From IMG/VR virus record IMGVR_UViG_2706796519_000001, positions 6,271-70,270 of that record: DNA of 64,000 nucleotides; one strand, 5' to 3'. A program made the position numbers and the translations under genes. The notes under the pieces are model-generated. The model was not told the DNA's origin. It made no database searches and saw only the letters and a program-made list of their open reading frames with translations. Origin of the DNA: a virus. Taxonomy: Duplodnaviria; Caudoviricetes. This document shows, piece by piece, positions 34,536 to 63,963 of this stretch; position 1 is the stretch's first letter; every line of letters starts with the position of its first letter.

Positions 34536-34591
34536 GGCGGGTCGGTCCCGCCTACACGCTCAAAGATACCCGACTAGGGCGGGAAAGTCTA
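34536..34591 (-). promoter_or_regulatory. Repeated promoter cassette, copy 1 (TAGACT-17-TATCTT plus leader hairpin)
   Basis: -35 at 34586-34591, -10 at 34563-34568, hairpin GGCGGGACCGACCCGCC at 34536-34552. Confidence 0.75.
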
Positions 34592-34646
34592 GGGGTCCGC
34601 ACGATCGCCCGATACGCTGTGGAGACAACCACCGGAGGAGACCTGA

Positions 34647-36209
34647 GTGACCGAGCGCGTGCTGCCGTTTGACCGCAAAATCATCCGCCAGGACACCGGC
34701 TACTGGTGCGGTCCGGCCTCGACTCAGATGGCCCTGTCCGCACGCGGCAAGTACGTCGATGAGGCGACGCTCGCTCGCGAGTGCAAGACGACCGTCAACG
34801 GAACCGACAACGTCGGCCAGATCGAGCGGGTGCTCGACGTCCGGCTGCCCGAGGGCAACTACACCTCGATGTACCCCGGCGGCACGAAGATCGGCAGCCC
34901 GGCCCGACCGGCGGCGGAGCGCAAGACACGGTTCTGGTGGGACATCGTGCGCTCGATCGACAACGGGTTCGCCGTCATCCTCAACTGGGTCGTGCCCCCG
35001 GCCCGAAAGCCGATCAAGGCCGTCAAAGGCAGCACCAACCCGTCGTACGGCGGTGGGACGACGTACCACTACGTGACCGCCGTCGGGTGGTCCGATGAGG
35101 GCAACGGCGGGCGACCGGCGGTGCTCATCGCCGACAGCGGGTTCGCGCCGAACGTCTATTGGGTCGACCTCGACACGGCGTTCGCCCTGATCCACACCGA
35201 TCTCTACAAGGGGTACGCGTTCGCGGACCTGCCGCTGATCGCTCCGCCTCCGCCCGGCGTCGAGGTGCCGCCCGGCATCCCCATCAAGGTCGGCACTCCG
35301 CCGGTCGCGACGACACCGCCTGCTCCGGTCCCGCCGACGCAGCCGCCCCCGACCAAGCTCGGCTCGCTCACCGACCCGTTCACGGGCGCGCTGTGGTCTC
35401 CGAACCACTACGACGGACGCGGAGGCCTCGGCACGCCGGGATGGATCGCCGTGCACACGCAGGAGGGCGGGCGCACTGCTCGCGATCTCGCGCTGTTCCT
35501 CGCGAACCCGGCCAACGAGGTCTCGTACCACTCGGTCAACGATGACGTCGAGGTGCTGAAATGCGTCGCGGAGACCGACGCGCCGTGGTCCGCGTCCAAC
35601 GCCAACAAGTACGCCTTCCATCACTGCTTCGCCGGTAGCTATGCCGGGTGGTCCCGCGACAAGTGGCTCTCACCGGACGCCAGCGACGGCAAGAACGAGG
35701 ACGTGCAGTTGACCAAGGGCGCGCACGTCGTCGCCTGGTGGTGCGACAAGTACGGCATCCCCGCCGAATGGATCGGCGGGCGGGCGCAGCCGCCGTGGGG
35801 TGCTCGCGGCATCCTCGGTCACGTCGACCTCGGCCAGTGGGGCGGCGGGCATTTCGACCCCGGCGGCAACTTCCCCGTCAACGAGTTCATCCGGCGCGTC
35901 GTGACGTTCCTGACCGGCGACGTCCAGCCTCCGTTGGAGCCGCTGCCGCCGGTCGTCGCGCCGGGCACGAACCCTGATGCCTACAGCGATTGGATGCTGG
36001 TGCGCGGCGACCCGCGCAACGACGTCGACCGGGTGATGAGGGTCCAGTCCAAGCTCAAGCGCGCGTACGCCGCCTACGCCGGGCACCTCGACGTCGATGG
36101 CGACTTCGGCCCGGCGACACAGGCAGCGGTGCGCGAGTTCCAGCGCCGATCGAACCTTGTGGCTGACGGCATCGTCGGCCCGATGACCGCTGCAGCACTA
36201 CGTCCGTGA
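34647..36209 (+). CDS. lysA: Lysin A (C39-like peptidase, Pro-rich linker, amidase_2, peptidoglycan-binding domain)
   Basis: YWCGPAS...HYVT...DS peptidase motifs; HTQE/SYH/GHxD amidase residues; DGDFGPATQAAVREFQ...DGIVGP. Confidence 0.92.
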   Translation: MTERVLPFDRKIIRQDTGYWCGPASTQMALSARGKYVDEATLARECKTTVNGTDNVGQIERVLDVRLPEGNYTSMYPGGTKIGSPARPAAERKTRFWWDIVRSIDNGFAVILNWVVPPARKPIKAVKGSTNPSYGGGTTYHYVTAVGWSDEGNGGRPAVLIADSGFAPNVYWVDLDTAFALIHTDLYKGYAFADLPLIAPPPPGVEVPPGIPIKVGTPPVATTPPAPVPPTQPPPTKLGSLTDPFTGALWSPNHYDGRGGLGTPGWIAVHTQEGGRTARDLALFLANPANEVSYHSVNDDVEVLKCVAETDAPWSASNANKYAFHHCFAGSYAGWSRDKWLSPDASDGKNEDVQLTKGAHVVAWWCDKYGIPAEWIGGRAQPPWGARGILGHVDLGQWGGGHFDPGGNFPVNEFIRRVVTFLTGDVQPPLEPLPPVVAPGTNPDAYSDWMLVRGDPRNDVDRVMRVQSKLKRAYAAYAGHLDVDGDFGPATQAAVREFQRRSNLVADGIVGPMTAAALRP

Positions 36210-36223
36210 GGAGACCGAGCGAC

Positions 36224-36343
36224 GTGACGACGTTGGGATGGCTGCTGGTGCTCATCCTCGGCGTCGCCGCCTCACTCGGCTGGGGCGGGCTGTGGTGGTC
36301 GCTCCGCTCCGACCCCTACCGCCCTTCTGACAGGAGACAGTGA
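36224..36343 (+). CDS. 39-aa single-TM protein between the lysins
   Basis: Hand-translated MTTLGWLLVLILGVAASLGWGGLWWSLRSDPYRPSDRRQ; GAGGAG SD; GTGA overlap with lysB. Confidence 0.6.
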   Translation: MTTLGWLLVLILGVAASLGWGGLWWSLRSDPYRPSDRRQ

Positions 36344-37602
36344 TGCCCGAACTCAAGCTCGGCTACCAGGGACCGCTGTATGCGCCGTGGTTCGATTGGT
36401 TCACCCGCAAGTACAGCCAGACCGCGCCCCTGCTCGGGAAGCGGGACGGCTATTTCGGATCCGACGAGAAGCGCGCCGTCGAGGCTCTGCAGCGCAACCT
36501 CGGCATCGTGATCGACGGCGTGTTCGGCGACCGCACCGCCTCGGCAGCCGGATACACCTGGCCCGGCGCGGACGCTCCGCCGGTCATCGCGCCTCGCCGA
36601 CCGATCTGGTTCTACTCATGCCCCGGCTCCGGCGCGGACTGGTGGCTGGGTCCCAGCTACGACGTCGGCCAGATGATCGCCGGGACGGGATGGAATGAGC
36701 CGGGGCGGCGGAGCCTCAACATCAACCACCAGCCGGTCGGCTTCCCCAAGGGCGGCTACCTCGGGCTGATGGGCGGTGACCCGACGTTCAGCTATATCGA
36801 GGTCATCACAGCCCAGAAGATCGAGTTCGCCCGGCTGTTGCGGGAGAACCCCGACGTGAAGGTGGCTATGGAGGCGCGGCGTCGGGACCGCTCCGCTCGG
36901 GTCGACGTCGAGCTGTGGCCGTCCGGCTACAGCCAGTCAGCCGACGGCATGTGCGACGCGGTGGCGGAGTTGTTCGGCGACGGCGGCGAGTTCGAGCTGA
37001 TCCGCGACCGCATCAACGGCCTGATCCTGTTCGGCAACCCGGCGACTCCGGTCACCGGCATCGCCCGCAAGACGTACCCGGCGTGGTTGAACGCGCTGAT
37101 GCGGAACATCAACATGTCCGACGACTTCTATGCCGTCGCCAAAGATCGCATCCGGCCCGCCTTCTACGCCGAGATCATCAAGGCGGAGATGGAACTGCCG
37201 TTCTTTGTCCACGTGCTGCGCATCGCGGTCCCGATCGTGTTGTCGTGGGCCTCAACGCTGCTGCCGTTCCTGGCTCCGCTCTTGGGCGGTCTCGGGCCGG
37301 GCGTGCAACTCGGTCTCGGAATGATCAGCGGCCTGCAGGGTCTCGGCTCCAACCCGGCTCTCACACAACTGCTCGGCATGGCGAACGGCTCCGCCGACCT
37401 GCAGACGACCGAGCGCGTCGAGGACATCCTGTCTCCGACCGGCATCCTCTCCAACATCCCCGATCTCATCGGGCTGCTCGGGGCGCTGCCCGGCCTGCAG
37501 AGTCACGGCCTGTACCACGCGACCGCTCCGGCCCGGCCCGAGTTCGGCAACCGGGTCGGCACCCAGTTCGCTTACGACATCATCGCCGGGTTCCGCCGGT
37601 AG
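36340..37602 (+). CDS. lysB: Lysin B (mycolylarabinogalactan esterase, cutinase-like) with an N-terminal PG-binding domain
   Basis: GYSQ nucleophile motif, LFGNP, C-terminal His; follows lysA. Confidence 0.9.
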   Translation: MMPELKLGYQGPLYAPWFDWFTRKYSQTAPLLGKRDGYFGSDEKRAVEALQRNLGIVIDGVFGDRTASAAGYTWPGADAPPVIAPRRPIWFYSCPGSGADWWLGPSYDVGQMIAGTGWNEPGRRSLNINHQPVGFPKGGYLGLMGGDPTFSYIEVITAQKIEFARLLRENPDVKVAMEARRRDRSARVDVELWPSGYSQSADGMCDAVAELFGDGGEFELIRDRINGLILFGNPATPVTGIARKTYPAWLNALMRNINMSDDFYAVAKDRIRPAFYAEIIKAEMELPFFVHVLRIAVPIVLSWASTLLPFLAPLLGGLGPGVQLGLGMISGLQGLGSNPALTQLLGMANGSADLQTTERVEDILSPTGILSNIPDLIGLLGALPGLQSHGLYHATAPARPEFGNRVGTQFAYDIIAGFRR

Positions 37603-37649
37603 CTGATAACCTGCGAGGGTCATGTTCTTCGTGGTTGTGGAACAGCGCA

Positions 37650-37684
37650 GAGACCCGGCACCTTCGGGGTAGGTGCCGGGTCTC
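37650..37684. terminator. Bidirectional terminator at convergent genes
   Basis: gagacccggcacc / ggtgccgggtctc, perfect 13-bp stem. Confidence 0.8.
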
Positions 37685-37703
37685 CGCTTTGGTCGGGCAG
37701 GAA

Positions 37704-40635: not shown

Positions 40636-40703
40636 GTTCGTTCTCCTATGGTTGTTTTCCCGGCGGGGCGATCCCGCACGGGCCAGGCGGTTCGATCCCG
40701 CCA

Positions 40704-40738
40704 AGTCTTGTGTCATCTGTCATCAGTCTTGTGCCATC
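40704..40738. repeat. 14-bp direct repeat pair with 21-bp period
   Basis: agtcttgtgtcatc (40704-40717) and agtcttgtgccatc (40725-40738). Confidence 0.7.
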
Positions 40739-41144
40739 AGCGATAACTCCGAATCGGCGTCAATTCTCGCCCTCGCTTCTGCTGACGGCGATGAGTACCG
40801 CACAGATCATGAGCAACGGTCTCTCGAGTGCATTCGGGTCCAGTACAGATCGCAGCCTGGCGTTTCCCAAACCGCCGATCGGGCTGAGGTTCCGGGACTT
40901 CCACCCCTGCCTCGCGTGCGATCTTCCGCCGATAATCCTCGTAATCAGTGCTGATGAATGCCCAGTCCCGCGTCTTGGGCCAGCCGTGTTCGTATCCCGG
41001 CACTTTCGCGTCGGCCAGCCGGTCAAAATGGAGGATGAATCCGCGACGGGTGTTCTTGCGTCGGCACACCTCGCCAACGACGGCTCCGCATCGAGTGCAC
41101 TCGATAGCCAGTGTTGATTTGATTTGCACCTCGGTCACGCTCAT
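40737..41144 (-). CDS. Cys/His-rich putative zinc-binding protein
   Basis: CxxC...C...H and CxxxxC...CxxH; ATGA overlap with the helicase stop. Confidence 0.65.
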   Translation of the reverse strand: MSVTEVQIKSTLAIECTRCGAVVGEVCRRKNTRRGFILHFDRLADAKVPGYEHGWPKTRDWAFISTDYEDYRRKIAREAGVEVPEPQPDRRFGKRQAAICTGPECTRETVAHDLCGTHRRQQKRGRELTPIRSYR

Positions 41145-42835
41145 CGCTCGATCCCGCCGTCGAGAACGCGGCTCGCGAGCTTGACGCTGATCTCGTCGCT
41201 CAGCCGGGCCTTCGTCATGTCGGCGTACCCGGCGATTCCCAGCTGCCGGGCGTATCGCTGCTGCGCCTCCGAGGGCGGCTGATTCCGTCGCCATGAGGCG
41301 CGGCGGTCGGGCAACTGCTGGTCGGTCTCGACAATCCAGACCTCGGCACCTTCCAGCGCGGCGGGGAGATCAACGTACTCAGGTTCCTCAGCGATGTAGC
41401 GACCGGAGCCGGTGACCCATCCGCCGTTCCTGGTCCGGTAGTTGATCTGGCCGATGGCCCAGGTGGTCCGCTCGTCTCCGGTCGGGCGTATCCCGTCCTT
41501 CGGCCAGACGAACACGATCTCGTTGTCGCCCATCAGGTTGATGAACGGGACACCCGCCGGGGTCTCCAACCACAGCGTCGTGTCGTTGGCGAGGAGGTCG
41601 ATGGTCACCATGTCGACCGGACCCTGCCGCACGATCTTGGTCACCGCGTCGTCAAGATCGCCGTCGAGCAAATCGTCCAGCGGAGCGTCGAGCAGTTCCA
41701 GCCCGTCCTCATCGACGGCCTTGGTCTCCGCGCCGGGGAGCAGCTGCGTCAGGTTGACCAGCTTCATCGTCCGCGCCGATCCGGCGAGGTCGAGCACCAG
41801 AGCGTCCGACTTGCCGGGGTACAGGCGGAGCGCGCGACCGACCATCTGCGAATACAGGTTGCGCGAGCGGGTCGGGCGGGCGAGCACCACGGTGTCGCAC
41901 ATCGGGAAGTCAGCGCCCTCGGTCAACACCTGCACGGTCACCAGCGCCCGGCACTCGCCGGACCGGAACGCTTCGTACATCGGCTGCCGGTCGGCGTAGT
42001 TGATCGCGCCGGTCACCGCGACGGCGGGATAATCCTCGGCAGTCAGCGCCTCGGCGATGTGGTGAGCGGCGTCGACCGAGGCGGCGAAGATGATCGGGGT
42101 GCGATCGGCGGCGTGCAGCTTGATCGCGTCGACCACGTACTGCGTCGCCGCCTCCATGACCTCGGCGAGATCGCCCTGGTGGAAGTCTCCGGCGACCGTC
42201 CGCACGTCATCGAGCGCGTCGAGACCCTTGATCTTCACGGTCAGCCCGCGCGGCTTGACCAGGTACTTTTTGCGGATGGCCCACGCGATGTCCTTCTCGT
42301 AGGCGATGTTCTCGATGACGTCGCCGAGGCCGATGACGCCGCGCTCGTTGCGGTACATCGTCGCGGTGAATCCGGCCATCAGCGCCGCGTCGTACCCGCC
42401 CAGTTCGCGGAACGTCGTGTGGAACCCCTCGGCTCCGGCGTGGTGCACCTCATCCCAGAGGATCACATGCCGCTCGCCCAGCGCCTCGCGGCGGTGAGCG
42501 GTGGCGAGGGTCTGCAGCGTCGCGAACACGATGTCGGCGTGGCTGTCGTCGGTCTCGGCACGGACGATGCCGGTCTTGTCGGCGTAGTGGGGCGCGACGG
42601 CGATGAAGTCGCGTCGCATCTGATCGAGCAATTCGCCCCGGTGGGCGAGGGCGATGACGCGCTGGTTGCGGTCGAGGGCGCGGCGTCCGACCTCGCCGAT
42701 GACGGTGGACTTGCCGGAGCCGGTGGGGAGCACGACGCCGGTGCGGCGAGTGCCGTCTGCCCACTTGGCCTCTACGGCGTCGGCGGCTGCGGTCTGATAG
42801 TCCCGCAACTCGCGGGGCGCGGCGGAGGCGGTCAT
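41141..42835 (-). CDS. Superfamily 2 DNA helicase
   Basis: PTGSGKS Walker A, DEVHH, TAT, QMVGRALR. Confidence 0.95.
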   Translation of the reverse strand: MTASAAPRELRDYQTAAADAVEAKWADGTRRTGVVLPTGSGKSTVIGEVGRRALDRNQRVIALAHRGELLDQMRRDFIAVAPHYADKTGIVRAETDDSHADIVFATLQTLATAHRREALGERHVILWDEVHHAGAEGFHTTFRELGGYDAALMAGFTATMYRNERGVIGLGDVIENIAYEKDIAWAIRKKYLVKPRGLTVKIKGLDALDDVRTVAGDFHQGDLAEVMEAATQYVVDAIKLHAADRTPIIFAASVDAAHHIAEALTAEDYPAVAVTGAINYADRQPMYEAFRSGECRALVTVQVLTEGADFPMCDTVVLARPTRSRNLYSQMVGRALRLYPGKSDALVLDLAGSARTMKLVNLTQLLPGAETKAVDEDGLELLDAPLDDLLDGDLDDAVTKIVRQGPVDMVTIDLLANDTTLWLETPAGVPFINLMGDNEIVFVWPKDGIRPTGDERTTWAIGQINYRTRNGGWVTGSGRYIAEEPEYVDLPAALEGAEVWIVETDQQLPDRRASWRRNQPPSEAQQRYARQLGIAGYADMTKARLSDEISVKLASRVLDGGIER

Positions 42836-42885
42836 GTGAATCCGATCTGAGGCTGAGAGTGGATCTGAGTCTGAGGTTGAGAGGT

Positions 42886-42949
42886 GCGGGCCGGTCCGGC
42901 AGAACCGGCCCGCGATCTCATTTATACCCGACGACGACGGGAAAGTCTA
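42886..42949 (-). promoter_or_regulatory. Repeated promoter cassette, copy 2 (TAGACT-17-TATAAA) with a different leader hairpin
   Basis: -35 at 42944-42949, -10 at 42921-42926, 10-bp inverted repeat at 42886-42913. Confidence 0.75.
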
Positions 42950-51378: not shown

Positions 51379-51403
51379 CAGGTCAGAGCCTTTCAGGTCT
51401 CCC

Positions 51404-51461
51404 GGCGGGTCGGTCCCGCTCGGGTTAGTTTTTTATACCCGATAGACCCACTGGCCGTCTA
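51404..51461 (-). promoter_or_regulatory. Repeated promoter cassette, copy 3 (TAGACG-18-TATAAA plus leader hairpin)
   Basis: -35 at 51456-51461, -10 at 51432-51437, hairpin at 51404-51419. Confidence 0.65.
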
Positions 51462-53694: not shown

Positions 53695-53933
53695 CGACCA
53701 GAGGAGGCGGCGTGAGCCGTACCGGCGGTCACTCGTCTGCACTCGATGCCTCTGACTTGCGGCGTCTCGGGATAATCCGTGCGCGTGTCGACAGGGCGAC
53801 CGCTTGCCACTACCGCGACAGCGGCAGGATCATCGTCGTAGCCGACAAGAACGACTTTGAGGCGGCTGCGCTCGCGCTCGCGGAGCTGACCGCCTCATGT
53901 GCACCGGAGGAGGAGGAGGAGACGACGCCGTGA
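53691..53933 (+). CDS. Hypothetical protein
   Basis: 4-nt overlaps with both neighbours. Confidence 0.55.
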   Translation: MTTRGGGVSRTGGHSSALDASDLRRLGIIRARVDRATACHYRDSGRIIVVADKNDFEAAALALAELTASCAPEEEEETTP

Positions 53934-55883: not shown

Positions 55884-56198
55884 ATGGGCAAGCGGGGTAC
55901 TCGCTCCGGCCTCCGGCGAGGCCGGGCCAAGGTCGCCCGACCGGGACACGGCGGGCCATCCCTTCACAGCGCTACAGGCAACGTCGGCGCATTCTCGGCC
56001 CGCTCCGGCGGAGGTCGCGGCGGAGGCGGCTATCGAGGGTTCAAGTCCAAGAAACAGTGGCGCTGGGCCTACGCGACGCATCAGCCGTGGGCGCGAAAGA
56101 AGGCTCACGAAACCAAGGGCGGCAAGATCACCCGCTACCGTCGACTGCCCGCCTCCAAGCACTCCGGCCACAAGGGATCTCGCGTCCCCAAGGCCTAA
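55884..56198 (+). CDS. Very basic Arg/Lys/Gly-rich protein
   Basis: ATG 55884 lies 7 nt after TAGCCT; FKSKKQWRWAYA motif. Confidence 0.7.
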   Translation: MGKRGTRSGLRRGRAKVARPGHGGPSLHSATGNVGAFSARSGGGRGGGGYRGFKSKKQWRWAYATHQPWARKKAHETKGGKITRYRRLPASKHSGHKGSRVPKA

Positions 56199-56602
56199 CG
56201 CCACCCCGGCGCGATCTCGGCGAGCGCGGCGGCTCCGAGCGTGCACCCGTCGAGATGGTCGAGGAGGTAGTGGGCCTTGCACTCGCGGCACATGTCATCG
56301 TCCCCGTACGGGGATTTCGCGCGGATTAACTCGGTCGTCCGGCGCTGGCCCTGTCTCCCGCTGCACGGGCAGCAGTGTGGGCGGATGTTGTTGCGGGTGT
56401 AGCGCCCGCCGAACTCGCCCGCAATGATCCTGTCCACGATCATCGTCTTGTCGTTGACCATCGCCCCGCACTCCCAGCACGCGACCTTCTCGCCGTCGCC
56501 GCCGAACCCCGAGGCCGGACTCAGCAGCCACGCGCGCCTCGCCCGGCGATCGTATGAACTGCCGCGTTCGTTGGAGTTGCAGCGTCCCGCCCTGCTGCTC
56601 AT
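56195..56602 (-). CDS. HNH endonuclease
   Basis: CWEC...VDRII...GGRYTRNNIRPHCCPC (His-to-Asp variant). Confidence 0.8.
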   Translation of the reverse strand: MSSRAGRCNSNERGSSYDRRARRAWLLSPASGFGGDGEKVACWECGAMVNDKTMIVDRIIAGEFGGRYTRNNIRPHCCPCSGRQGQRRTTELIRAKSPYGDDDMCRECKAHYLLDHLDGCTLGAAALAEIAPGWR

Positions 56603-56703
56603 CGGGCCGGACGTCCGCACCGTGCGCAGACCTCGACCGCTCGCCCGGCCCGAACAATCGTCATCGTCGTCAAGTGACGGCACGGGGCGTGCGGCGCGCT
56701 CAC
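56599..56703 (-). CDS. 34-aa Zn-finger-like mini-protein
   Basis: Hand-translated MSAPHAPCRHLTTMTIVRAGRAVEVCARCGRPAR; 4-nt overlaps at both ends. Confidence 0.5.
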   Translation of the reverse strand: MSAPHAPCRHLTTMTIVRAGRAVEVCARCGRPAR

Positions 56704-56861
56704 CGGATGGCCTCGCCGTCCCAGCAGGCATCATGCAACATCTCGGGCCGGATCGTGCCGAACGCCAGCCACCACAGGCACGGCTGAATATCGACCAGCT
56801 TGACGTCGAGGTGGGACGTGCGTCGAGCTTTAGCGCTGATCACGCGATCGTCGCCCTTCAT
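56700..56861 (-). CDS. 53-aa hypothetical protein
   Basis: Hand-translated MKGDDRVISAK...; 4-nt overlaps at both ends. Confidence 0.55.
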   Translation of the reverse strand: MKGDDRVISAKARRTSHLDVKLVDIQPCLWWLAFGTIRPEMLHDACWDGEAIR

Positions 56862-57070
56862 AGACCGAACTCCTCCTCGTACATCGGCAAGAACTCGCTC
56901 GCCGGGCGCGGTCGCCCGGCCTCGACAGCGACGTCAAACATCCCCCGCAGGTGTTCGAGGTAGTGGACGTGCGGCGACCGCTCGAATCCGGCGTCCGGTG
57001 CTTCCACGATGCGGTGCACGATCTTGCGGCGCTGCTTCGCGACGTCCATGCCGCGCTCGATGCTGATCAC
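56858..57070 (-). CDS. Hypothetical protein
   Basis: GGAGG SD, GTGA overlap. Confidence 0.6.
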   Translation of the reverse strand: MISIERGMDVAKQRRKIVHRIVEAPDAGFERSPHVHYLEHLRGMFDVAVEAGRPRPASEFLPMYEEEFGL

Positions 57071-57324
57071 CACGCCTCCTCGCACGCCACCTCGGGCCGG
57101 TGCACCAGATAGCACCGATTACACAACACCTCGCGCGGACCGACCGTGAACTCAGCGAGATTCAGCGCGTCGGCGGTGCCCGGTCCGCGCCCGTCGGGCC
57201 ACTCCTCGATCGGCTCCGGCCTCGGTCCGCAATCAACCCCCGGCAGGCACGCCCGGCACCCCGTCGTGGCGGAGTGGGCGCGGTGTCCGCATCGTCGGCA
57301 CGGCACCCGGTAGTCGAACGTCAC
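57067..57324 (-). CDS. Cys-rich Zn-binding protein
   Basis: CxxCxH...CxxC...C; CxxC..H...C. Confidence 0.6.
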   Translation of the reverse strand: MTFDYRVPCRRCGHRAHSATTGCRACLPGVDCGPRPEPIEEWPDGRGPGTADALNLAEFTVGPREVLCNRCYLVHRPEVACEEAW

Positions 57325-57530
57325 CGCCCGTCGCCGTTCGGGACGACGACCGGCCCGTGTGTCGGGCAGCGGAGCCGTCCGGCCTGCTCGCAGTCGAGGC
57401 ACTTGCCCGTCTGAACAGCGTTGTGGGCCTCGACGGCGGCAGCTAGCCGCTCGATCGCGGAGATGGCGCGCTCGGCGGTTTCCTGCCAGCTGGCCGGGTT
57501 GCCTCCGGCAATCATGTCGAACAGTGACAT
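57321..57530 (-). CDS. Small protein with a CxxC...CxxH motif
   Basis: GGAGG SD; coupled overlap. Confidence 0.6.
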   Translation of the reverse strand: MSLFDMIAGGNPASWQETAERAISAIERLAAAVEAHNAVQTGKCLDCEQAGRLRCPTHGPVVVPNGDGR

Positions 57531-57895
57531 CAGATGACCTCCGACCCGTTGTGATCCTCGACCCTGGCGGTGTTGACCCATCCGCCCTTGGGAGCCTTCG
57601 GCCCGCCGGTGCGGGTCGCGACGACGACGTGGTTGTGCCCCAGCCGGAACACGCCGCCCTTCCATGCCGGTTCCACCAGCAGGAACTCCGGCCTCGCGCC
57701 CCGGCTCAGGGCGACCTTGCCGACGCGCTCGGTGCGGGTCGCCCCGTCGAGCACCCGCACGTCGACCGCAGCCTTGTAGGCGGCAGCGATCGAGGGGTGC
57801 GTGTCCTCGATCAGCGTGAGGTCGAGCGCGTCGCCGTGCTGTGTGCGCAGCCGTGCCGCGATCTCGATCAGGGTCGGGTTCGGCGTGTCGGTCAT
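57530..57895 (-). CDS. Hypothetical protein
   Basis: AAGGGAG SD, ATGA overlap. Confidence 0.65.
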   Translation of the reverse strand: MTDTPNPTLIEIAARLRTQHGDALDLTLIEDTHPSIAAAYKAAVDVRVLDGATRTERVGKVALSRGARPEFLLVEPAWKGGVFRLGHNHVVVATRTGGPKAPKGGWVNTARVEDHNGSEVI

Positions 57896-58170
57896 GTGAT
57901 CGGTGCTCCCTTCGAGGTGATCTGCAGTCCGTTGCGGCGCAGGTTGGCGATGTCGTTCTTGCGGCTCCGGTACTCGCTCGGCGTCCCGGCGATCGTGCCG
58001 ATGAGGCGACCGTCGAGATAGACCTTGTAGTGCCCAGTGCGGCTCCGGCATGGCTTGAGTTCACCGCCTGCCGCCTCGATCGCGGCGAGTAGCGCCCGCG
58101 TGTCGCGATCGGAGGTTCGATTGCTGGCTCGCTTGGAGCCGGGTTGGGGTCCGCTGCAGACCACCGTCAC
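57892..58170 (-). CDS. HicA-like toxin-fold protein
   Basis: LLAAIEAAGG...TGHYKVY...TIAGTPSEYRSRKNDIANLRRNG. Confidence 0.6.
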   Translation of the reverse strand: MTVVCSGPQPGSKRASNRTSDRDTRALLAAIEAAGGELKPCRSRTGHYKVYLDGRLIGTIAGTPSEYRSRKNDIANLRRNGLQITSKGAPIT

Positions 58171-58478
58171 CACCACATTTCGCCGTCGTGGAGGACGACG
58201 GTGAACTGGTCGCCGTCGCTCGCGGAGTCGATCGCAGCACACACGTCGCGCCGGTCGACCGGCGCGAGCCGAGCGACCAGCGTCGTGCTCGACAGTTGGA
58301 TAGATGCGTGGTTGCCGGTCGAGACATTCACCGCTTCCAGCACGCGGTACGTCTTGGCGGCGACGTAGGTGCGAGCGGTGATGACTTTGTAGGCCTGTCC
58401 GCGCTCGACCGCTCCCAGCATCACCCCTCGGTACACGTCCCCCGGCTGCAACTCAGCTGCCTCGATCACCGTGCTCAT
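58167..58478 (-). CDS. Hypothetical protein
   Basis: First gene after promoter copy 4; AAGGGG SD. Confidence 0.7.
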   Translation of the reverse strand: MSTVIEAAELQPGDVYRGVMLGAVERGQAYKVITARTYVAAKTYRVLEAVNVSTGNHASIQLSSTTLVARLAPVDRRDVCAAIDSASDGDQFTVVLHDGEMWW

Positions 58479-58492
58479 ATCGGTCCCCTTCC

Positions 58493-58549
58493 GGCGGGTC
58501 GGTCCCGCCTCATGTCTCTTAACTTACCCGACGTCGTCGGGCTAGTCTA
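58493..58549 (-). promoter_or_regulatory. Repeated promoter cassette, copy 4 (TAGACT-17-TAAGTT plus leader hairpin)
   Basis: -35 at 58544-58549, -10 at 58521-58526, hairpin at 58493-58509. Confidence 0.75.
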
Positions 58550-58552
58550 GGT

Positions 58553-58753
58553 CTACTTTTGTGTCACGATCCGGCGCGGCTCGCGCTGCAGATGCTCATC
58601 GAGCTGCCCGACGAGAGACGGGCGCGGAGGCCGGGCCGGAGCCGCGTGGACGCGGACCTTGCCGTCCTTGCGGACGGCGCGCGGCGTGAGGCAGATCGGG
58701 CACAGCTGCTCCGTGACGTACCGCTCGCGATCGGCCCACCTCCGCCGGGACAT
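58553..58753 (-). CDS. Small basic protein with a CxxC...H motif
   Basis: 66 aa, LCPIC...VRKDGKVRVH. Confidence 0.55.
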   Translation of the reverse strand: MSRRRWADRERYVTEQLCPICLTPRAVRKDGKVRVHAAPARPPRPSLVGQLDEHLQREPRRIVTQK

Positions 58754-58782
58754 CAGCGGAGGTGAGCCAGACCCGAGGCACT

Positions 58783-58953
58783 TCACCGACCCGCACTCCA
58801 CGCCGCCGGGAGGAACCCGCCCCGGTCGATCCATTCGTGCAGCGCCAAGATCAGCTCGGCGAGCCGGACTGCTTGGGCGTCGTGATCCTCGGCGAACTGC
58901 ACGATGCCGCGCGCGAGTCCCAGCGTCTCGGCCAGGTTGGCGTCGGGGTCCAT
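58783..58953 (-). CDS. 56-aa hypothetical protein
   Basis: MDPDANL...LHEWIDRGGFLP..W; start overlaps the upstream stop. Confidence 0.65.
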   Translation of the reverse strand: MDPDANLAETLGLARGIVQFAEDHDAQAVRLAELILALHEWIDRGGFLPAAWSAGR

Positions 58954-59195
58954 CAGGAGACCTCGACCCAACGCATCACGACCCGCAACGCGGCGTCGTA
59001 ACTGTCGGCGTCGATGATCTCGTTGACGAACTCGCGCGCCTGGTCGCGGGTCGCTCCGCCGGAGAGCAGCGCCCGCTGGACCCGACCGATGATCAGGAAC
59101 ACGTTGCCGTCGTCGCCGGTCAGCTTCACGTGGACGTCAGGGAACTTCGGCCCGGTCGTCTCCGGCTCGGTGGCCGGAGCGGTGTCGTTTGCCAT
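58953..59195 (-). CDS. Hypothetical protein
   Basis: LTGDDGNVFLIIGRV..AL...G...YDAAL; GGAGGAGG SD. Confidence 0.75.
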   Translation of the reverse strand: MANDTAPATEPETTGPKFPDVHVKLTGDDGNVFLIIGRVQRALLSGGATRDQAREFVNEIIDADSYDAALRVVMRWVEVS

Positions 59196-59246
59196 GCTGT
59201 AGTGCCTCCTCCCGCCCGATCGGCGGAGTTGTAGGGGTTTGTGTGC

Positions 59247-59273
59247 GCGTTGGCCGGACGCGCCCCCGGTCGT
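59247..59273. repeat. 27-nt intergenic repeat, copy 1
   Basis: gcgttggccggacgcgcccccggtcgt, 26/27 identical to 61677-61703. Confidence 0.8.
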
Positions 59274-59276
59274 GCT

Positions 59277-59858
59277 CTAGTGCCGCTCGAACGGGCTGCC
59301 GTAGCGCCCGCCGGAGCCGCCTGCCCCGAGCGGCGAGACGTACCCGCCCGACGCGTACCGTGCCCCGGTCAAGACGGCCACGACGCTCGGCTCCGCCGGG
59401 TCGGACGTGCCCAGCACCCGGCCATAGTCGCCCATCTCCTCGGCGACCGGCGGCTCCACGCCCTCGGGCAGCAGGTTCTCCGCATCGACCAGCGACCGGA
59501 GTGTTGCCCAGATGGCCTCGCCGACGAACTGCAACAGGCCGGGCCAGTTGAAACGGCGACCGTCCTGCCCCGTCACGGCCCAGCGGACGCTGCGACCCTC
59601 GCGCCACCCGACGGCGGCGTAGGCGTACTCGCGACCGTTGAGGTACCGCTGGAACGCGACGACCGGGTTCTCGCCCTGCGCCACGCGCGGCATCTTGGGC
59701 TTGCGCGCCTCCTCTTCGGCGACCGCCTGTTCAGCGGCCTGCCTCGTCAGCTCATCGGCGACGGCGCGTGCCCTTGCGGCCTCGGCGCGGAGCTGTGCGG
59801 CGGAGACCGGCTCGACGCTCTTGACGTTGGTGGCCTTCTCGCCCTCGGATTCACTCAT
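59277..59858 (-). CDS. Hypothetical protein (coiled-coil N-terminus)
   Basis: GAGGA SD before ATG 59858. Confidence 0.7.
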   Translation of the reverse strand: MSESEGEKATNVKSVEPVSAAQLRAEAARARAVADELTRQAAEQAVAEEEARKPKMPRVAQGENPVVAFQRYLNGREYAYAAVGWREGRSVRWAVTGQDGRRFNWPGLLQFVGEAIWATLRSLVDAENLLPEGVEPPVAEEMGDYGRVLGTSDPAEPSVVAVLTGARYASGGYVSPLGAGGSGGRYGSPFERH

Positions 59859-59901
59859 GGTTTTGATCCTCTCAGTGGTTGTGATTTGTTGGGTTGTGGG
59901 A

Positions 59902-59951
59902 GGGGTCCGGCGAGGGCGCACGGGCGGAGCACACCCACCTCGCCGGACCCC
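59902..59951. terminator. 14-bp perfect inverted repeat with a 22-nt loop
   Basis: ggggtccggcgagg / cctcgccggacccc. Confidence 0.55.
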
Positions 59952-59957
59952 GGTCTG

Positions 59958-60281
59958 TTATCCGCGCGGGACGACGTACACGCCCCACCGGACCCGCCGT
60001 ACCAGCGTCGGTTGGCTCCGGTGCAGGTCGGCGAGGCGGCTGTTGACGACGTTGGCAGGCAGGTCCATCTCCTCCGCAACGGCGGTGTAGTGCGCCCCGT
60101 CGTCGTGCTTCACCAGGACGTCATAGACCTCGCGCTGCTTGCGAGTGAGCACGGACGGGTCGCCGGGCGTGAAGGCGGCGGGCCGACCGTACGTGTCGAA
60201 TGCCGATAGCAGCGCAGCCGCCTCGTACGGGTCATCGCCCGGCTCGATCTCGACCGTCACCTCACCTTTCGTGATCTTCAC
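59958..60281 (-). CDS. Winged-HTH DNA-binding protein
   Basis: LTRKQREVYDVL...TAVAEEMDLPANVVNSRLADL...VRRVRWGVY. Confidence 0.7.
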   Translation of the reverse strand: MKITKGEVTVEIEPGDDPYEAAALLSAFDTYGRPAAFTPGDPSVLTRKQREVYDVLVKHDDGAHYTAVAEEMDLPANVVNSRLADLHRSQPTLVRRVRWGVYVVPRG

Positions 60282-61351
60282 GCGCTCGCCCCAACCATCG
60301 GACCCCACCGGAGCACCTGATCCGTCGTCAGCGGCAGAGCCTTGCGCAGCCCGGCGTACGCGTCCGACTTGATCTTGTGCACGTCGGCGGAGGTCAGCGT
60401 GCGGTTGGCGCGCCGGGACGCGGCGTTGCCGCCCTTGCCGAACACGGGCATGAAGTGGTCGGCGTACTCGGTGACCGCGTTGTAGGCGGCGTAGGCCGTG
60501 CCCGCGAACGGGGTGATCGAGGGCGAGTGACGCATGACCTCCATGACCTGAGTGACGCGCTCGACGCGAGCGTTGCGGGCCTTCTCGGAGTCGGCCTTGT
60601 TCACGCCGAACACGTCGTTGAACACCGCCCTCACCCACGCCTCCTCGCGATCGACCTGCAGCGACTCCATCCCGCTCGCGTACACCTCGGTGTACTTGAA
60701 CGTCAGCCCCAGCAGCCTCCGCACCTCAGCCAGCTTCGCCGCCGACGCGCCGACGTGACGCAGGGCGACCGAGCTGACGGCCTCCGCCTCGGCGATGCGC
60801 TGCGTGTTGGCGCAGACGATGCGGACCGGGGAGATGATGGCGCGGAGCGACCCCTGGCCGTCGTGGTGATTGATCACGGCCAGATAGACCTCGGTCGTGT
60901 CGCGGAACCCGTCGGAGCCGGTGAACTCGACGTGAGTCGGCATCAACATCGTCACGAACGTCCGTCGCCCGCCGTCGAGCGCGCCGATGGTCTGGATATG
61001 TGCGCCGGACTGGTCCGTGATGGCGTAGAGGAGGTCGGTGGTCTCCTCGTTCTGGATCGGCTGCCAGCGGTCGCCGACGACGGCCAGCGCCTCCGGCATG
61101 AGCGTGACCGGGTTGGTCCGCAGGACCGTCCACTGGCCGGGCGCGTTGATCTCGGTCGTCCCGCCGAGACCGTCGTCAACGATCTGGGCGTGCTCGACCT
61201 TGCGAACGTTCCAGTCGTTCATGTTCGCCGCTTCCAGCGCCTCCGCCGGGGCCATCTCATGGCCGACCTGCTGCCCGAGTTGATGCCATGCATCGTTGCG
61301 GCTATCGGCGAAGCTGTAGCGACCGGCGGTTCTGTCGATCTCATGTCCCAT
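60278..61351 (-). CDS. DUF932-family protein
   Basis: AWHQLG...LAVVGDRWQPIQN...GALDGGRRTF...NHHDG...PVRIVCANT. Confidence 0.85.
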   Translation of the reverse strand: MGHEIDRTAGRYSFADSRNDAWHQLGQQVGHEMAPAEALEAANMNDWNVRKVEHAQIVDDGLGGTTEINAPGQWTVLRTNPVTLMPEALAVVGDRWQPIQNEETTDLLYAITDQSGAHIQTIGALDGGRRTFVTMLMPTHVEFTGSDGFRDTTEVYLAVINHHDGQGSLRAIISPVRIVCANTQRIAEAEAVSSVALRHVGASAAKLAEVRRLLGLTFKYTEVYASGMESLQVDREEAWVRAVFNDVFGVNKADSEKARNARVERVTQVMEVMRHSPSITPFAGTAYAAYNAVTEYADHFMPVFGKGGNAASRRANRTLTSADVHKIKSDAYAGLRKALPLTTDQVLRWGPMVGASA

Positions 61352-61382
61352 GATCTTGTCTCCGTTCGAGTTGGGTTGTGGG

Positions 61383-61643
61383 TTAGGACTGGGTGCCGTC
61401 GTGCGGGGTGTTGTCGTCGCCGTTGGACACGCCGTCTCCGTCGTCGTCCTTGGCTCCCCAGCCACCTCCTCCGCCGTGGGAGTTGATGGCGATGTCCTTG
61501 CATTCGGCCTTGTGGCCGGTGCGGTAGGCCATGTTCGAGCTACACAAGACGTCGTCCTGCGGTCCTGCGACGGCGGGCGATGCGAGGGCGAAACCTCCGG
61601 CGATGAGCGAGGCTCCGAGCGCGGCAGTGAGGGTGATCTTCAT
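61383..61643 (-). CDS. Small exported protein with a DxDxDG-type acidic motif
   Basis: Signal peptide; two Cys; KDDDGDGVSNGDDNTP. Confidence 0.7.
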   Translation of the reverse strand: MKITLTAALGASLIAGGFALASPAVAGPQDDVLCSSNMAYRTGHKAECKDIAINSHGGGGGWGAKDDDGDGVSNGDDNTPHDGTQS

Positions 61644-61676
61644 GGTCGTTCCTTCCAGTGGTTGTGTTGGGTTTGT

Positions 61677-61703
61677 GCGTTGGCCGGACGCACCCCCGGT
61701 CGT
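61677..61703. repeat. 27-nt intergenic repeat, copy 2
   Basis: gcgttggccggacgcacccccggtcgt. Confidence 0.8.
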
Positions 61704-61704
61704 T

Positions 61705-61974
61705 CTACTTGGGGAGATCGGTGCCCTGAGTCGCGTCGGCTGCCCAGAGGGTCAGGTTCACGATGTCGGCACCGTCGGTGCTGTCGAGGTCGATGACCGC
61801 GACGCGGCTGGTCTCATCGCCGCCGACGGTCCCAGCTGCCCAGGTCTCGTGAATGTCGGTCCAGGTGATCTGGCCGTGCATATGCTGAGCCGAGAGCATC
61901 GAGTCGAGGATGGAGTAGCCGTCCTCCTCGTTCGAGGTGGCCCAGCCGGTGACGATTGCGGTGCGAACGGTCAT
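61705..61974 (-). CDS. Hypothetical acidic protein
   Basis: First gene after promoter copy 5; GAGG SD. Confidence 0.65.
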   Translation of the reverse strand: MTVRTAIVTGWATSNEEDGYSILDSMLSAQHMHGQITWTDIHETWAAGTVGGDETSRVAVIDLDSTDGADIVNLTLWAADATQGTDLPK

Positions 61975-61987
61975 TTTTGCCTCTCTC

Positions 61988-62047
61988 GGCGGGGTCGGTC
62001 CCGCCTCCAACAAGACTGATATTACCCGACGTCGGCGGGAAAGTCTA
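61988..62047 (-). promoter_or_regulatory. Repeated promoter cassette, copy 5 (TAGACT-17-TAATAT plus leader hairpin)
   Basis: -35 at 62042-62047, -10 at 62019-62024, hairpin at 61988-62005. Confidence 0.8.
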
Positions 62048-62089
62048 TAGCTTTCTAGCTGGGATTATGACAATCTTCCGAGCCGGGAA

Positions 62090-62257
62090 TCACGGTAGCG
62101 ACCAGATTGCTGCGCCGACCGGGATAGTCAGGACCGAGGTGAGCATGATCGTCGCCCCGACCCACTCGCGAGCGGAGCCGTGTTCGGCCCGGCTGAGTAC
62201 GGACATGCCCAAAAGCACGCCGGAGATGCCCACTAGGGCGATGAACAGGACGCTCAC
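62090..62257 (-). CDS. 55-aa 2-TM membrane protein
   Basis: Hand-translated MSVLFIALVGISGVLLGMSVL...IMLTSVLTIPVGAAIWSLP; AAGGAG SD, GTGA overlap. Confidence 0.6.
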   Translation of the reverse strand: MSVLFIALVGISGVLLGMSVLSRAEHGSAREWVGATIMLTSVLTIPVGAAIWSLP

Positions 62258-62616
62258 GGGGTCTCCTTGCGGATCACGTCGGCGATCGGGTCGCCGAACA
62301 TCTCGGATTGTTCTTCGTAGCTGAGCGGGCCGACCACCTCCGCGACCGCATCGGCCTCGATCTGGTTGCGCCGGGCGAGACGTCGCTGTTGCTCGACGTG
62401 GTGTTGGTCAATGGCCTCGCGAGCCTCGGCTACCTGCGCGGCCATATCGGCGCGGATGATCGCGTCCCACAAGGTCAGCGGCTCCGGCGTCGGGCGCGGA
62501 GCGACCAGGTTGTGTGCCCACGCGATGTGCGAGGCATCCTCGGCATCACGGACGCGGCGGCGAGCCTTGCGACCGAACCACCCGCACGCGGGGCAGCGGA
62601 ATCGACGGCACTTCAC
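62254..62616 (-). CDS. Hypothetical protein with a CPAC motif
   Basis: 120 aa, GTGA overlap. Confidence 0.65.
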   Translation of the reverse strand: MKCRRFRCPACGWFGRKARRRVRDAEDASHIAWAHNLVAPRPTPEPLTLWDAIIRADMAAQVAEAREAIDQHHVEQQRRLARRNQIEADAVAEVVGPLSYEEQSEMFGDPIADVIRKETP

Positions 62617-62963
62617 GGGACAATCACCTCAATCTCTCGGCGGAACAGGCACAGTCGTCGCCCTCGGGCGAACGTGATGCAGAACAGCGGCTCGCGCTCA
62701 CCGTTCATGATCGAGGAGACGTGACCGCGCCGGGTACCGCTCACGATCACGGCGTCGCCGATGACCGGCGTCACCTCGGGGTCCGCAGCGCGGGCGCTCG
62801 CCGCGTCGCCGCAGACGGTCTGAGCCTGCCTCTTGGTCGGATAGTGGGTGGGGTCGACCCCCGGCCCGTCGGCGAACCATCCGTGCCGGTGCCCGTGGTG
62901 CTCGACCACGAACGGGCCGGACTCATACCGCGCCGGGTCGGCGGTCTCGCGGTGCCATTTCAT
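62613..62963 (-). CDS. Hypothetical protein
   Basis: AGGAG SD, ATGA overlap. Confidence 0.65.
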   Translation of the reverse strand: MKWHRETADPARYESGPFVVEHHGHRHGWFADGPGVDPTHYPTKRQAQTVCGDAASARAADPEVTPVIGDAVIVSGTRRGHVSSIMNGEREPLFCITFARGRRLCLFRREIEVIVP

Positions 62964-63166
62964 GCGGGTTCTCCTGTCAACAGGCGCGAGGCCTCGGGAA
63001 AGTAGAACGCGGCGGAGCCGCCGCATCCACACAACCGCCGGGCTGCGGTGTGCTTGTCTGGGCAGCAGGCGTTGGCGTCGTACTCGGCCCACCACTCCGC
63101 CCACGTCATCGCCTCCTCGAATACCTCGGCGAGGTTGGGCTGGTCCAGATCGGTATCGGTGATCAT
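62960..63166 (-). CDS. Small Cys-containing protein
   Basis: AGGAG SD; CC...H...CGC. Confidence 0.6.
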   Translation of the reverse strand: MITDTDLDQPNLAEVFEEAMTWAEWWAEYDANACCPDKHTAARRLCGCGGSAAFYFPEASRLLTGEPA

Positions 63167-63203
63167 GTCGGTCTCCTGGTCGATTGTCGGGACGGGGTGG
63201 AGA

Positions 63204-63231
63204 GCGGGGCGGAGTCGAGACCCCGCCCCGC
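63204..63231. terminator. Intergenic hairpin
   Basis: gcggggcgg / ccgccccgc, 9-bp stem. Confidence 0.45.
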
Positions 63232-63237
63232 GTCGGA

Positions 63238-63891
63238 TCACCGGGTGTGCGAGATGTAGCTGAGCCACCGATCGAGGTTGTCCTGCGCGTCGGCGGTGCT
63301 CATGCCCTCGGGCGCGGTGATCGAACCGTCGGCCCAGGCTTCCAGGATGACCTTGTGGATCTGGTCGCCGAGCAGCTGCTTGAGCTTGAGCGGCGACGGG
63401 GCGGAGGCCTTCGCGACGACCGGCTCAGCAGCCTCGATCTCCTCGGCAGCCTCGGCCCGGCGGGCGATCTCCGCGTCCACGGCGGCGTCGACCGTCATCA
63501 GTTCCTCGACCGGGGCGGGTGCCTCGGCCTCGGTCTCGACCGGATCAGCGCCGGGTGCCTCCGCTGCGATCTCGATCGGCAGAGCGACCGTCTTGGACGC
63601 GTTCTTGGCCGCGACCAACTCGGTGAATGCGCTGGCGGGAATCTCGCCCCAGCCGTCGATCTCCGGCGTCCAGTCTCCGAGCTTGCCCTTGATCGCGGTT
63701 GGGAGCACCGGGTAGACCGTCGCGCCCGGCCCGAACTGGCGACCTTGCGCGGCCTTGTAGGCGCTGGCGAAACTCTTGTGCCAGGTGACGCCGTCCACGG
63801 TCGCGACGTAGGGCATGGTCCCGCTGGTGCGGGTGACAGGCGCATCCTCGGTGCCGGGAATCTGTGCGGTGAACTCGATCTTTGCGGCCAT
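63238..63891 (-). CDS. Hypothetical Ala/Glu-rich protein
   Basis: 217 aa; first gene after promoter copy 6. Confidence 0.75.
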   Translation of the reverse strand: MAAKIEFTAQIPGTEDAPVTRTSGTMPYVATVDGVTWHKSFASAYKAAQGRQFGPGATVYPVLPTAIKGKLGDWTPEIDGWGEIPASAFTELVAAKNASKTVALPIEIAAEAPGADPVETEAEAPAPVEELMTVDAAVDAEIARRAEAAEEIEAAEPVVAKASAPSPLKLKQLLGDQIHKVILEAWADGSITAPEGMSTADAQDNLDRWLSYISHTR

Positions 63892-63904
63892 TTTTGCCTT
63901 TCTC

Positions 63905-63963
63905 GGCGGGTCGGTCCCGCCTCCAACAAAGATGATATTACCCGACTTCGGAGTGAAAGTCTA
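63905..63963 (-). promoter_or_regulatory. Repeated promoter cassette, copy 6 (TAGACT-17-TAATAT plus leader hairpin)
   Basis: -35 at 63958-63963, -10 at 63935-63940, hairpin at 63905-63921. Confidence 0.8.

Follow-up and report, generated by a model that had tools for sequence, protein, structure and literature searches.

The window analyzed here is a stretch of 64,000 nucleotides (nt) covering bases 6271 to 70270 of a 70,270-bp viral genome (IMG/VR record IMGVR_UViG_2706796519_000001; G+C content, ∼67%). The source virus matches the lytic mycobacterial phages of Cluster B, Baee type (subcluster B5), and is called Baee below; the sequence is 97% identical to Mycobacterium phage Rich and 92 to 93% identical to phages Acadian and Donny. 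With >350 genomes, Cluster B ranks second in size among the groups of mycobacteriophages, and to our knowledge next to nothing is known of how its members express their genes. Between its leftward genes Baee carries repeated copies of an ∼85-nt cassette composed of a −35 hexamer, a dyad (CCCG(C/A)C-NWN-G(T/G)CGGG), a −10 hexamer (TANNNT), a leader hairpin (GGCGGG-N5-CCCGCC), a Shine-Dalgarno (SD) sequence and an ATG start codon. These sites very probably function as promoters, and the dyad in the promoter spacer is best read, with moderate confidence, as the operator of a phage-encoded regulator that would join the sites in one regulon. Phages of the B5/Baee group are described as circularly permuted, not temperate and devoid of an integrase and a repressor (PMC4472886).

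A first-pass annotation, made from the window sequence alone, had reported six minus-strand promoter sites, and all six are present at the positions it gave. The pattern TAGACK-N17-TANNNW matched five times, always on the minus strand (34563 to 34591, 42921 to 42949, 58521 to 58549, 62019 to 62047 and 63935 to 63963), against 0.03 matches expected from shuffled sequences. As reported, the spacer is 17 nt long in five copies and 18 nt in the remaining one, whose −35 hexamer lies at 51456 to 51461 and whose −10 hexamer reads TATAAA. The inverted repeat CCCG-N7-CGGG is perfect at 34569, 42927, 58527 and 62025, degenerate at 63941 to 63955 (CACTCC...GTCGGG) and absent from 51438 to 51455. Each site lies immediately upstream of a leftward open reading frame, in an intergenic gap of 70 to 115 nt, and heads a leftward block; in Rich, the homologous places are unannotated gaps between annotated leftward genes. 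In five of the six promoters, a hairpin of the GGCGGG-ACCGA-CCCGCC type begins 10 to 13 nt past the −10 hexamer and is followed by an SD sequence. The annotation had set this hairpin apart from the promoter unit; the promoter sites stand as described, with the hairpin belonging to the same cassette.

Cassette 1 (34515 to 34591) has its −35 hexamer TAGACT at 34586 to 34591, the dyad CCCGCC-CTA-GTCGGG at 34569 to 34583 and the −10 hexamer TATCTT at 34563 to 34568, followed by the hairpin GGCGGG-ACCGA-CCCGCC (34536 to 34552), an SD sequence and an ATG at 34517. It heads an operon for a DUF6011 protein, an XRE-type helix-turn-helix (HTH) protein and a phrog_597 DNA-binding protein and stands back-to-back with lysA. 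Cassette 2 (42833 to 42949) heads the helicase operon (TAGACT at 42944 to 42949; CCCGTC-GTC-GTCGGG at 42927 to 42941; TATAAA at 42921 to 42926). Its leader holds a noncanonical, longer hairpin (42886 to 42913; −31.6 kcal/mol), and the start codon is at 42835. Cassette 3 (51376 to 51461), at the head of the replication-gene operon, combines TAGACG at 51456 to 51461 with an 18-nt spacer (51438 to 51455) that lacks the left dyad arm and TATAAA at 51432 to 51437; the hairpin (A)GCGGG-ACCGA-CCCGC(C) at 51404 to 51419 bears an outer CCCG/CGGG stem extension and precedes the ATG at 51378. Cassette 4 (58476 to 58549) contains TAGACT at 58544 to 58549, the perfect dyad CCCGAC-GAC-GTCGGG at 58527 to 58541, TAAGTT at 58521 to 58526, a hairpin at 58493 to 58509 and an ATG at 58478. 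In cassette 5 (61972 to 62047), TAGACT (62042 to 62047), CCCGCC-GAC-GTCGGG (62025 to 62039) and TAATAT (62019 to 62024) are followed by a hairpin with a 6-nt loop (61988 to 62005) and an ATG at 61974. Cassette 6 (63889 to 63963) heads the last leftward block, with TAGACT at 63958 to 63963, the degenerate dyad CACTCC-GAA-GTCGGG at 63941 to 63955, TAATAT at 63935 to 63940, a hairpin at 63905 to 63921 and an ATG at 63891; across the arbitrary genome end, its back-to-back neighbor is gene 1, which has a leaderless start.

Six copies proved too low a count, as the genome holds eight. The seventh lies at genome positions 6228 to 6256, ∼15 to 40 nt left of the window start, and reads, on the minus strand, TCGACT-ATCCCGACGACGGCGGG-TAAGCT (17-nt spacer), then 6 nt and an ATG. 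It heads a gene for a RuvC-like resolvase embedded in the rightward structural arm and has no leader hairpin. The 6-nt distance from the −10 hexamer to the ATG is kept in Rich, Acadian and Phelemich, and the message of this gene is therefore probably leaderless. The eighth, partial copy (51840 to 51871, minus strand) precedes a DUF7423 gene and consists of the dyad CCCGAC-GCT-GACGGG (51857 to 51871), one G, the −10 hexamer TAGAGT (51850 to 51855), 7 nt and an ATG at 51842, with no TAGACT −35 hexamer. Acadian, Phelemich, Zenteno07 and Imvubu keep this arrangement of dyad and −10 hexamer, and LilMcDreamy has a looser version of it; at this copy, too, the message is probably leaderless. With these two copies added, the motif starts every leftward transcription block, and the rightward blocks are without it. 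The leftward units contain the replication genes, the RuvC gene, the HTH operon and many small genes of the right arm. The sites cover every leftward block, but the rightward nonstructural block (52212 onwards) falls outside the set and one copy sits in the structural arm; the proposed single switch would therefore not extend over the whole nonstructural arm.

That the sites are promoters is very probable because four features of the sequences agree. First, scans anchored on the hairpin only, with no hexamers imposed, recovered a −35 and a −10 hexamer at fixed spacing in Imvubu, Rosebush, Phaedrus and Cooper, and in every subcluster. Second, the −10 hexamer varies between phages only at its three free positions, N3 to N5 (TAATAT, TAACGT, TAGCTT and TAACTT), with T1, A2 and T6 kept in the aligned dyad-type sites; the exceptions to TANNNT are the two Baee copies that end in A (TATAAA) and one Acadian copy that ends in C. 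Third, the relatives have TTGACA or TTGACT at the place of the −35 hexamer, where Baee has TAGACT (4 of 6), and canonical TTGACA/TTGACT-17-TAACTT/TAAGTT promoters occur among them. Fourth, in the leaderless copies the ATG follows 6 to 8 nt past the −10 hexamer, and this spacing is kept between phages. A generic σ70 scan did not flag the sites, which share 8 of 12 positions with the Escherichia coli consensus. The number of terminators found in a terminator scan was no higher than chance. A search for RNA runs that contain window positions 56000 to 64000 listed none apart from a wastewater run of small share.

A motif scan of the genome and its relatives, which the first-pass annotation had proposed as a check, found the same cassette across Cluster B: it is common to the B1, B4, B5, LilMcDreamy and Zenteno07 types. 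The homologous gaps of Rich, Acadian, Phelemich and LilMcDreamy carry it, and in PG1 (B1), Zenteno07 and Cooper (B4) the dyad and hairpin are the same and the −35 hexamer is canonical (TTGACA or TTGACT). In Imvubu and Phaedrus (B3), the promoter, the hairpin and the left arm TCCCGA(C/G) are kept, the right arm is degenerate and the spacer is 16 nt long. Rosebush (B2) keeps the hairpin, but its −35 hexamer is GAGACA, its spacer is another one (A(T/C)GCCGCC...) and inverted repeats of variable sequence lie around the −35 hexamer. Since B3, Imvubu and B2 keep the promoter with a degenerate dyad or another spacer, the palindrome appears dispensable for promoter function as such. A 76-nt PG1 cassette query matched 365 phage records at 3,349 places (∼11 per B1 genome); copy numbers among the relatives range from ∼6 to 11 per genome. 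Matches to the 76-nt query came from two Tsukamurella phage records as well, and the module may extend beyond Mycobacterium hosts. An exact-pattern scan of viral contigs returned mostly known isolates and a few short uncultured or metagenomic contigs. When temperate relatives with the cassette were sought by a scan of genome contigs, one 9.6-kb phage-like contig of a metagenome-assembled genome was found and no prophage.

The spacer dyad was examined in an alignment of 35 dyad-type sites from six genomes. It is 15 bp long with a 6-3-6 layout, spans approximately −27 to −13 between the two hexamers and has twofold symmetry with conserved arms. In the 70,270-bp genome, CCCG[AC]C-N3-G[GT]CGGG occurs exactly five times (0.18 expected), four of them in promoters, and a whole-genome dyad scan found no standalone operator copies outside promoters beyond chance. 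The sole exact dyad outside a promoter (11242, plus strand; window 11230 to 11265, CCCGACAAGGGCGGG) lies within a larger GC hairpin of the structural operon. Thirteen of the 17 spacer positions carry >1 bit of information. The two neighbors of the central W vary, as does position 8, the second base past the −35 hexamer, and the central base itself is A or T in all aligned sites. These free positions are randomized among phages that share only ∼70 to 80% DNA identity, so that the neighboring arms appear to be under selection rather than merely copied.

The substitutions in the arms separate a DNA site from a hairpin. Among 200 arm pair cells, one-sided changes number 22 and compensated changes one; the inner pair (5/11) is noncomplementary in 33 of the 35 sites; and as RNA most copies fold to only ∼−5 kcal/mol. 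For these reasons the dyad fits best as a duplex-DNA site and not as a selected hairpin. The same figures bear on the proposal that the dyad is an RNA or DNA hairpin, acting as a terminator, an insulator or a processing site in read-through transcripts and overlapping the next promoter. The Rosebush inverted repeats, which vary, covary and flank the −35 hexamer like terminator stems, would suit this proposal, as would the copy at 58527 to 58541, a perfect 6-3-6 palindrome that folds to −11 kcal/mol. With the weak folds of most copies, the retained mismatch, the uncompensated arm changes and the lack of a U tract against it, it is extremely unlikely. The Rosebush repeats are long (record positions 61109 to 61150 and 61478 to 61519, e.g., CCGGTGGCGGC ... 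GCCGCCACCGG) and look like a terminator-type stem overlapping the promoter; nothing like them was seen in B5.

The inner positions of the two arms are linked: across the 35 sites, the combination (C,T) occurs 25 times, (A,G) eight times, (A,T) twice and (C,G) never (Fisher P = 2e−6). The 15-mer CCCGCC-NWN-GTCGGG can therefore point either way at one and the same place in the promoter. In front of the DUF6011 gene, the orthologous sites of Baee (34569) and Phelemich are reverse complements of each other, center included. Mirror-symmetric conservation, indifference to orientation, confinement to promoters and persistence in a copy without a −35 hexamer all point to a duplex site read by a dimeric protein. 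A repressor is the favored candidate for that protein, given the location at approximately −27 to −13 and the near-consensus hexamers found in the relatives. The DosR, PafBC −26 element and LexA boxes presumably do not fit the dyad spacing.

A different account of the conserved spacer is that it belongs to the promoter itself and serves no dedicated regulator, tuning its strength, its supercoiling dependence or its contacts with SigA region 3, RbpA or CarD through a G-rich stretch before the −10 hexamer, CCCG(A/C)C after the −35 hexamer and an A/T center. No spacer features other than the GG directly before the TA and the CCCG(A/C)C after the −35 hexamer persist in every subcluster, whether or not a clear dyad is present; in the degenerate copies (63941 to 63955 and 51438 to 51455) the right arm is better kept than the left; and no candidate regulator tracked the spacer type. 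Polymerase contacts are directional, however, and neither the inner 7 nt, found in either orientation, nor the mirror-symmetric conservation suits that. The dyad of the DUF7423 gene, moreover, lies one base further from its −10 hexamer and has no −35 hexamer. Nor do we know of any need for specific spacer bases in strong mycobacterial SigA promoters. On balance, an intrinsic role is unlikely.

The leader hairpin shows the contrasting substitution pattern. Among 65 copies from 10 genomes, 54 have the canonical stem and five carry compensated double changes (for example GGCCGG/CCGGCC, GCCGGG/CCCGGC and GGCGGC/GCCGCC), and nearly all uncompensated changes are at the terminal pair. The loop is 3 to 6 nt long with A as its first base, and the distance from the −10 hexamer to the hairpin ranges from 10 to 16 nt. 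The variable loop, the variable distance to the promoter and the compensated changes ruled out the leader palindrome as a DNA operator. These features suit a hairpin formed in the RNA within a few nucleotides of the predicted 5′ end, the simplest role being that of a stabilizer, and the near-invariance of the stem sequence suggests that something also reads it. In the helicase leaders, hairpins of −26 to −36 kcal/mol (z, −4 to −6) have a sequence unrelated from phage to phage. Past the hairpin, the Baee helicase leader (42836 to 42885, minus strand) consists of ∼50 nt of CU-rich, CCTCAG-like repeats without a clear SD sequence; at this position, the repeats of PG1, Zenteno07 and Imvubu are CA-rich (ACCAC). 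A comparison of the whole window with Rfam gave no family at or above its gathering score.

Two tandem copies of the hairpin, GGCGGG-ATCGA-ACCGCC and GCGGG-ATCGC-CCCGC, lie without a promoter upstream of a ParB-like gene (40663 to 40701, minus strand). As judged from these two hairpin-only copies, the leader hairpin would be able to act apart from the promoter. Two CACAAGACT repeats precede the tandem hairpins (40663 to 40760, minus strand), and the segment with the ParB-like gene is missing from Acadian.

The cassette could also be regarded as mainly a portable recombination and expression module, similar to the promoter-early stem-loop (PeSL) cassettes of T4-type phages, with the spacer kept through repeated copying and gene conversion and not for a function of its own. 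The range of copy numbers among the relatives is in keeping with this, as are the junctions of several cassettes. At cassette 4, where homology breaks and one-gene indels fall exactly, the similarity to Acadian and Phelemich ends at the junction of leader and start codon, and both relatives have an extra small gene there. The last Baee gene lies behind a different, differently placed cassette in Phelemich. A metagenomic relative (L015:3420-3540) has a complete leftward cassette and gene at the junction homologous to the Baee dyad at 11242, which may accordingly be a cassette relic. Portability as the main role is nevertheless very unlikely, as the arms are fixed while the bases flanking W, the second base after the −35 hexamer and the linker from the −10 hexamer to the hairpin are randomized, a pattern that homogenization would not yield, and the arms are conserved between subclusters with low or undetectable DNA identity. 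The cassettes do appear to behave as mosaic joints as well, like the PeSLs of T4-type phages: two or three cassette junctions coincide with indels or rearrangements (a small sample), with the stem-loop in the leader and not a terminator.

The rightward operons and a ribbon-helix-helix (RHH) gene start differently, with TANNNT (TATCCT, TACACT, TAGAGT or TACCTT), 6 to 7 nt and an ATG without an SD sequence. Such starts are found at genome position 1 (gene 1), at genome position ∼6270 (a gp9-like gene) and at window positions 52212 and 53067. They look like −10-only leaderless promoters, a class distinct from the leftward cassettes, and three of them are back-to-back with a leftward cassette. The gp9-like gene, on the strand opposite the seventh copy, starts with TACACT, 6 nt and an ATG, and the dyad of that copy falls in the −35 zone of its promoter. 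In the central control region (51843 to 52211), divergent promoters were identified. The distal leftward one (51901 to 51930, minus strand), TAGACG-18-TAAGAT, lacks a dyad and has a leader hairpin of alternating CG behind it; at its place Rosebush has the consensus TTGACA-18-TATAAT. The rightward one reads TCGACT-18-TAGGAT (∼51959 to 51988). An AT-rich palindrome, TAAGAAT-T-ATTCTTA (51932 to 51946), lies exactly between the divergent −35 hexamers and is present in Rich and Acadian and not in Phelemich.

These arrangements bear on a further possibility, that the dyad is the docking site of a phage activator or polymerase-retargeting factor, as at promoters of a "middle" type, which might also activate the back-to-back rightward leaderless promoters. 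The copy at the DUF7423 gene has a dyad and a −10 hexamer with no −35 hexamer; the B5 −35 hexamer (TAGACT) is weaker than TTGACA, and a simple σ70 scan misses the sites; the three back-to-back copies place the dyad in the −35 zone of the opposite promoter; and a protein similar to HTH_23 and sigma region 4 is encoded. The copies of B1, B4, Zenteno07 and Imvubu, with a consensus −35 hexamer and 17-nt spacing, should on the other hand be strong unaided, and a dimer on −27 to −13 would clash with polymerase at most known promoters, which makes an activator site quite unlikely.

Four proteins were considered as candidate regulators. Two are encoded on the minus strand in the cassette 1 operon: the XRE-type HTH protein (33281 to 33667; Pfam HTH_31, phrog_955), whose recognition helix DRRDYQRIE is conserved cluster-wide and which gave only a weak 434-repressor-like match in a PDB sequence search, and a 69-amino-acid DNA-binding protein (33071 to 33280; phrog_597). 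The other two are encoded on the plus strand in the rightward block: an RHH protein (53067 to 53315; Pfam RHH_10), the product of the second gene, which has its own leaderless-looking promoter, and a protein with an N-terminal match to HTH_23 and sigma-70 region 4 (53897 to 54571). PHROGs and RefSeq label the latter "RNase E," a name that looks unreliable, as its only match is the N-terminal one and no nuclease signature was found. All four are present in nine of the nine phages compared. For the DUF7423 protein, there was no protein atlas result, and the AlphaFold model (predicted local distance difference test score, 74) is small and helical and gave no Foldseek match.

The first-pass annotation had interpreted the sites as SigA promoters whose spacer doubles as an operator. 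Their SigA-type appearance, a spacer constrained far beyond what a σ70-type promoter needs, its twofold symmetry and its behavior as double-stranded DNA bear this out in part, but the four HTH and RHH candidates gave no signal across spacer types. Several points weigh against, or limit, the reading of promoter, dyad and leader. In an alignment of nine phages, the DNA-reading segments of the XRE, phrog_597, RHH_10 and HTH_23 proteins do not sort with the spacer type, and Cluster B phages have been described as lacking a repressor (PMC4472886). The symmetry is not universal, with Phaedrus (B3) and Imvubu keeping only the left arm in a 16-nt spacer and Rosebush having a different spacer. What stays constant across the cluster is CCCG(A/C)C beside the −35 hexamer, and this sequence could have to do with polymerase instead. 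Template switching can invert any short palindrome, and the flips may carry no functional meaning. The site sets were in part gathered by regular expressions with fixed positions, and the information values of the hexamers are therefore partly built in. Finally, the near-invariant stem sequence of the leader hairpin exceeds what RNA stability alone explains.

Even with these points taken into account, an operator read by a phage-encoded regulator is the reading to which we give moderate confidence, and it would work as follows. Host RNA polymerase with the housekeeping sigma factor (SigA type: TAGACT, 17 nt, TANNNT) would read the promoters and start every leftward unit, with transcript starts 6 to 8 nt past the −10 hexamer. 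A phage-encoded dimeric protein would bind the 15-bp dyad on double-stranded DNA and, because the dyad lies between the two hexamers, would compete with polymerase, leading to a joint switch-off of the units, for example at the early-to-late transition. In the RNA, the leader hairpin, close to the predicted 5′ end and to the ribosome site, probably guards against 5′-end-dependent decay or serves as a protein handle. An extended version, in which the dyad-bound protein shuts the early promoter and also opens the back-to-back late one while a second factor reads the hairpin, would constitute a two-layer early/late switch. The same protein could open the late promoters because three copies are back-to-back with leaderless rightward (late) operon starts, but the full scheme is unlikely. 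If it is true, several hundred strictly lytic actinophages, all of one group, would share a global switch from early to late expression.

The literature searched held no description of the cassette, with a mention in the Hatfull reviews (PMC4199240 and PMC2830324) remaining possible. For Cluster B, the searched papers gave generic predictions of SigA-like promoters only; a B1 preprint went no further than reporting that the reverse strand has many predicted SigA-like promoters with high scores. A paper on Alexphander gp94 concerns an F1 phage and was set aside as irrelevant to the cassette. One defined cassette per leftward unit provides a testable map of transcription units, and the 15-bp DNA dyad and the 17-nt RNA hairpin are compact cis elements for fishing out trans-acting factors. 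For mycobacterial genetics, the cassettes also offer strong promoters and leaders that may be switchable.

Several known phage systems resemble the Cluster B cassette in part. The start-associated sequences (SAS) of Cluster K reportedly are 13-bp motifs that include the ribosome-binding site, extended (ESAS) by an inverted repeat just upstream of it. Like the cassette, they form a conserved noncoding module repeated before a subset of genes, with an inverted repeat near the ribosome site; unlike it, the SAS are not tied to a promoter, whereas the Cluster B module begins with one, and the hairpin sequences are unrelated. At Pant of phage P22, the operator of Arc lies between the −35 and −10 hexamers, and the phiC31 repressor acts on conserved inverted repeats in multiple copies, with many early promoters sharing one operator type. 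The dyads of these systems, as proposed for Cluster B, overlap the core promoter and are bound by a small phage protein acting as a dimer or tetramer, but the Cluster B phage is lytic, no repressor is annotated in it and the candidate operator is of unrelated sequence.

The Cluster O mycobacteriophages (the Corndog group) carry predicted SigA-like promoters and >30 copies of a 17-bp dyad, TGTTCGG-NNN-CCGAACA (PMC4351075). These are likewise actinophages of Mycobacterium smegmatis, with several strongly predicted SigA-like leftward promoters, leaderless starts and a small repeated dyad that has invariant arms and a variable, mostly A/T 3-bp center and occurs in either orientation. Their dyad differs in being scattered, often near or inside gene starts and not in a promoter spacer, is unrelated in sequence and is not accompanied by a conserved leader hairpin. 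The PeSL cassettes (PMC4122927) are also repeated modules of an early promoter and a stem-loop that lie in plastic nonstructural regions of a lytic phage and coincide with gene indels; however, their stem-loops are terminator-like and variable in sequence and there is no spacer dyad, whereas the Cluster B hairpin is in the leader, past the start site, and nearly invariant. The stoperators of Cluster A are asymmetric 13- to 14-bp sites in one orientation, mostly outside promoters, in temperate phages with a known repressor (PMC9262239). Many copies of one short intergenic site in a mycobacteriophage and genome-wide control by one protein are the shared elements, although the Cluster B dyad is near-symmetric, occurs in both orientations, is confined to promoters and belongs to a lytic group without a repressor. 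Set beside these systems, the Cluster B cassette is a new sequence variant on a familiar logic of phage control and not a new principle.

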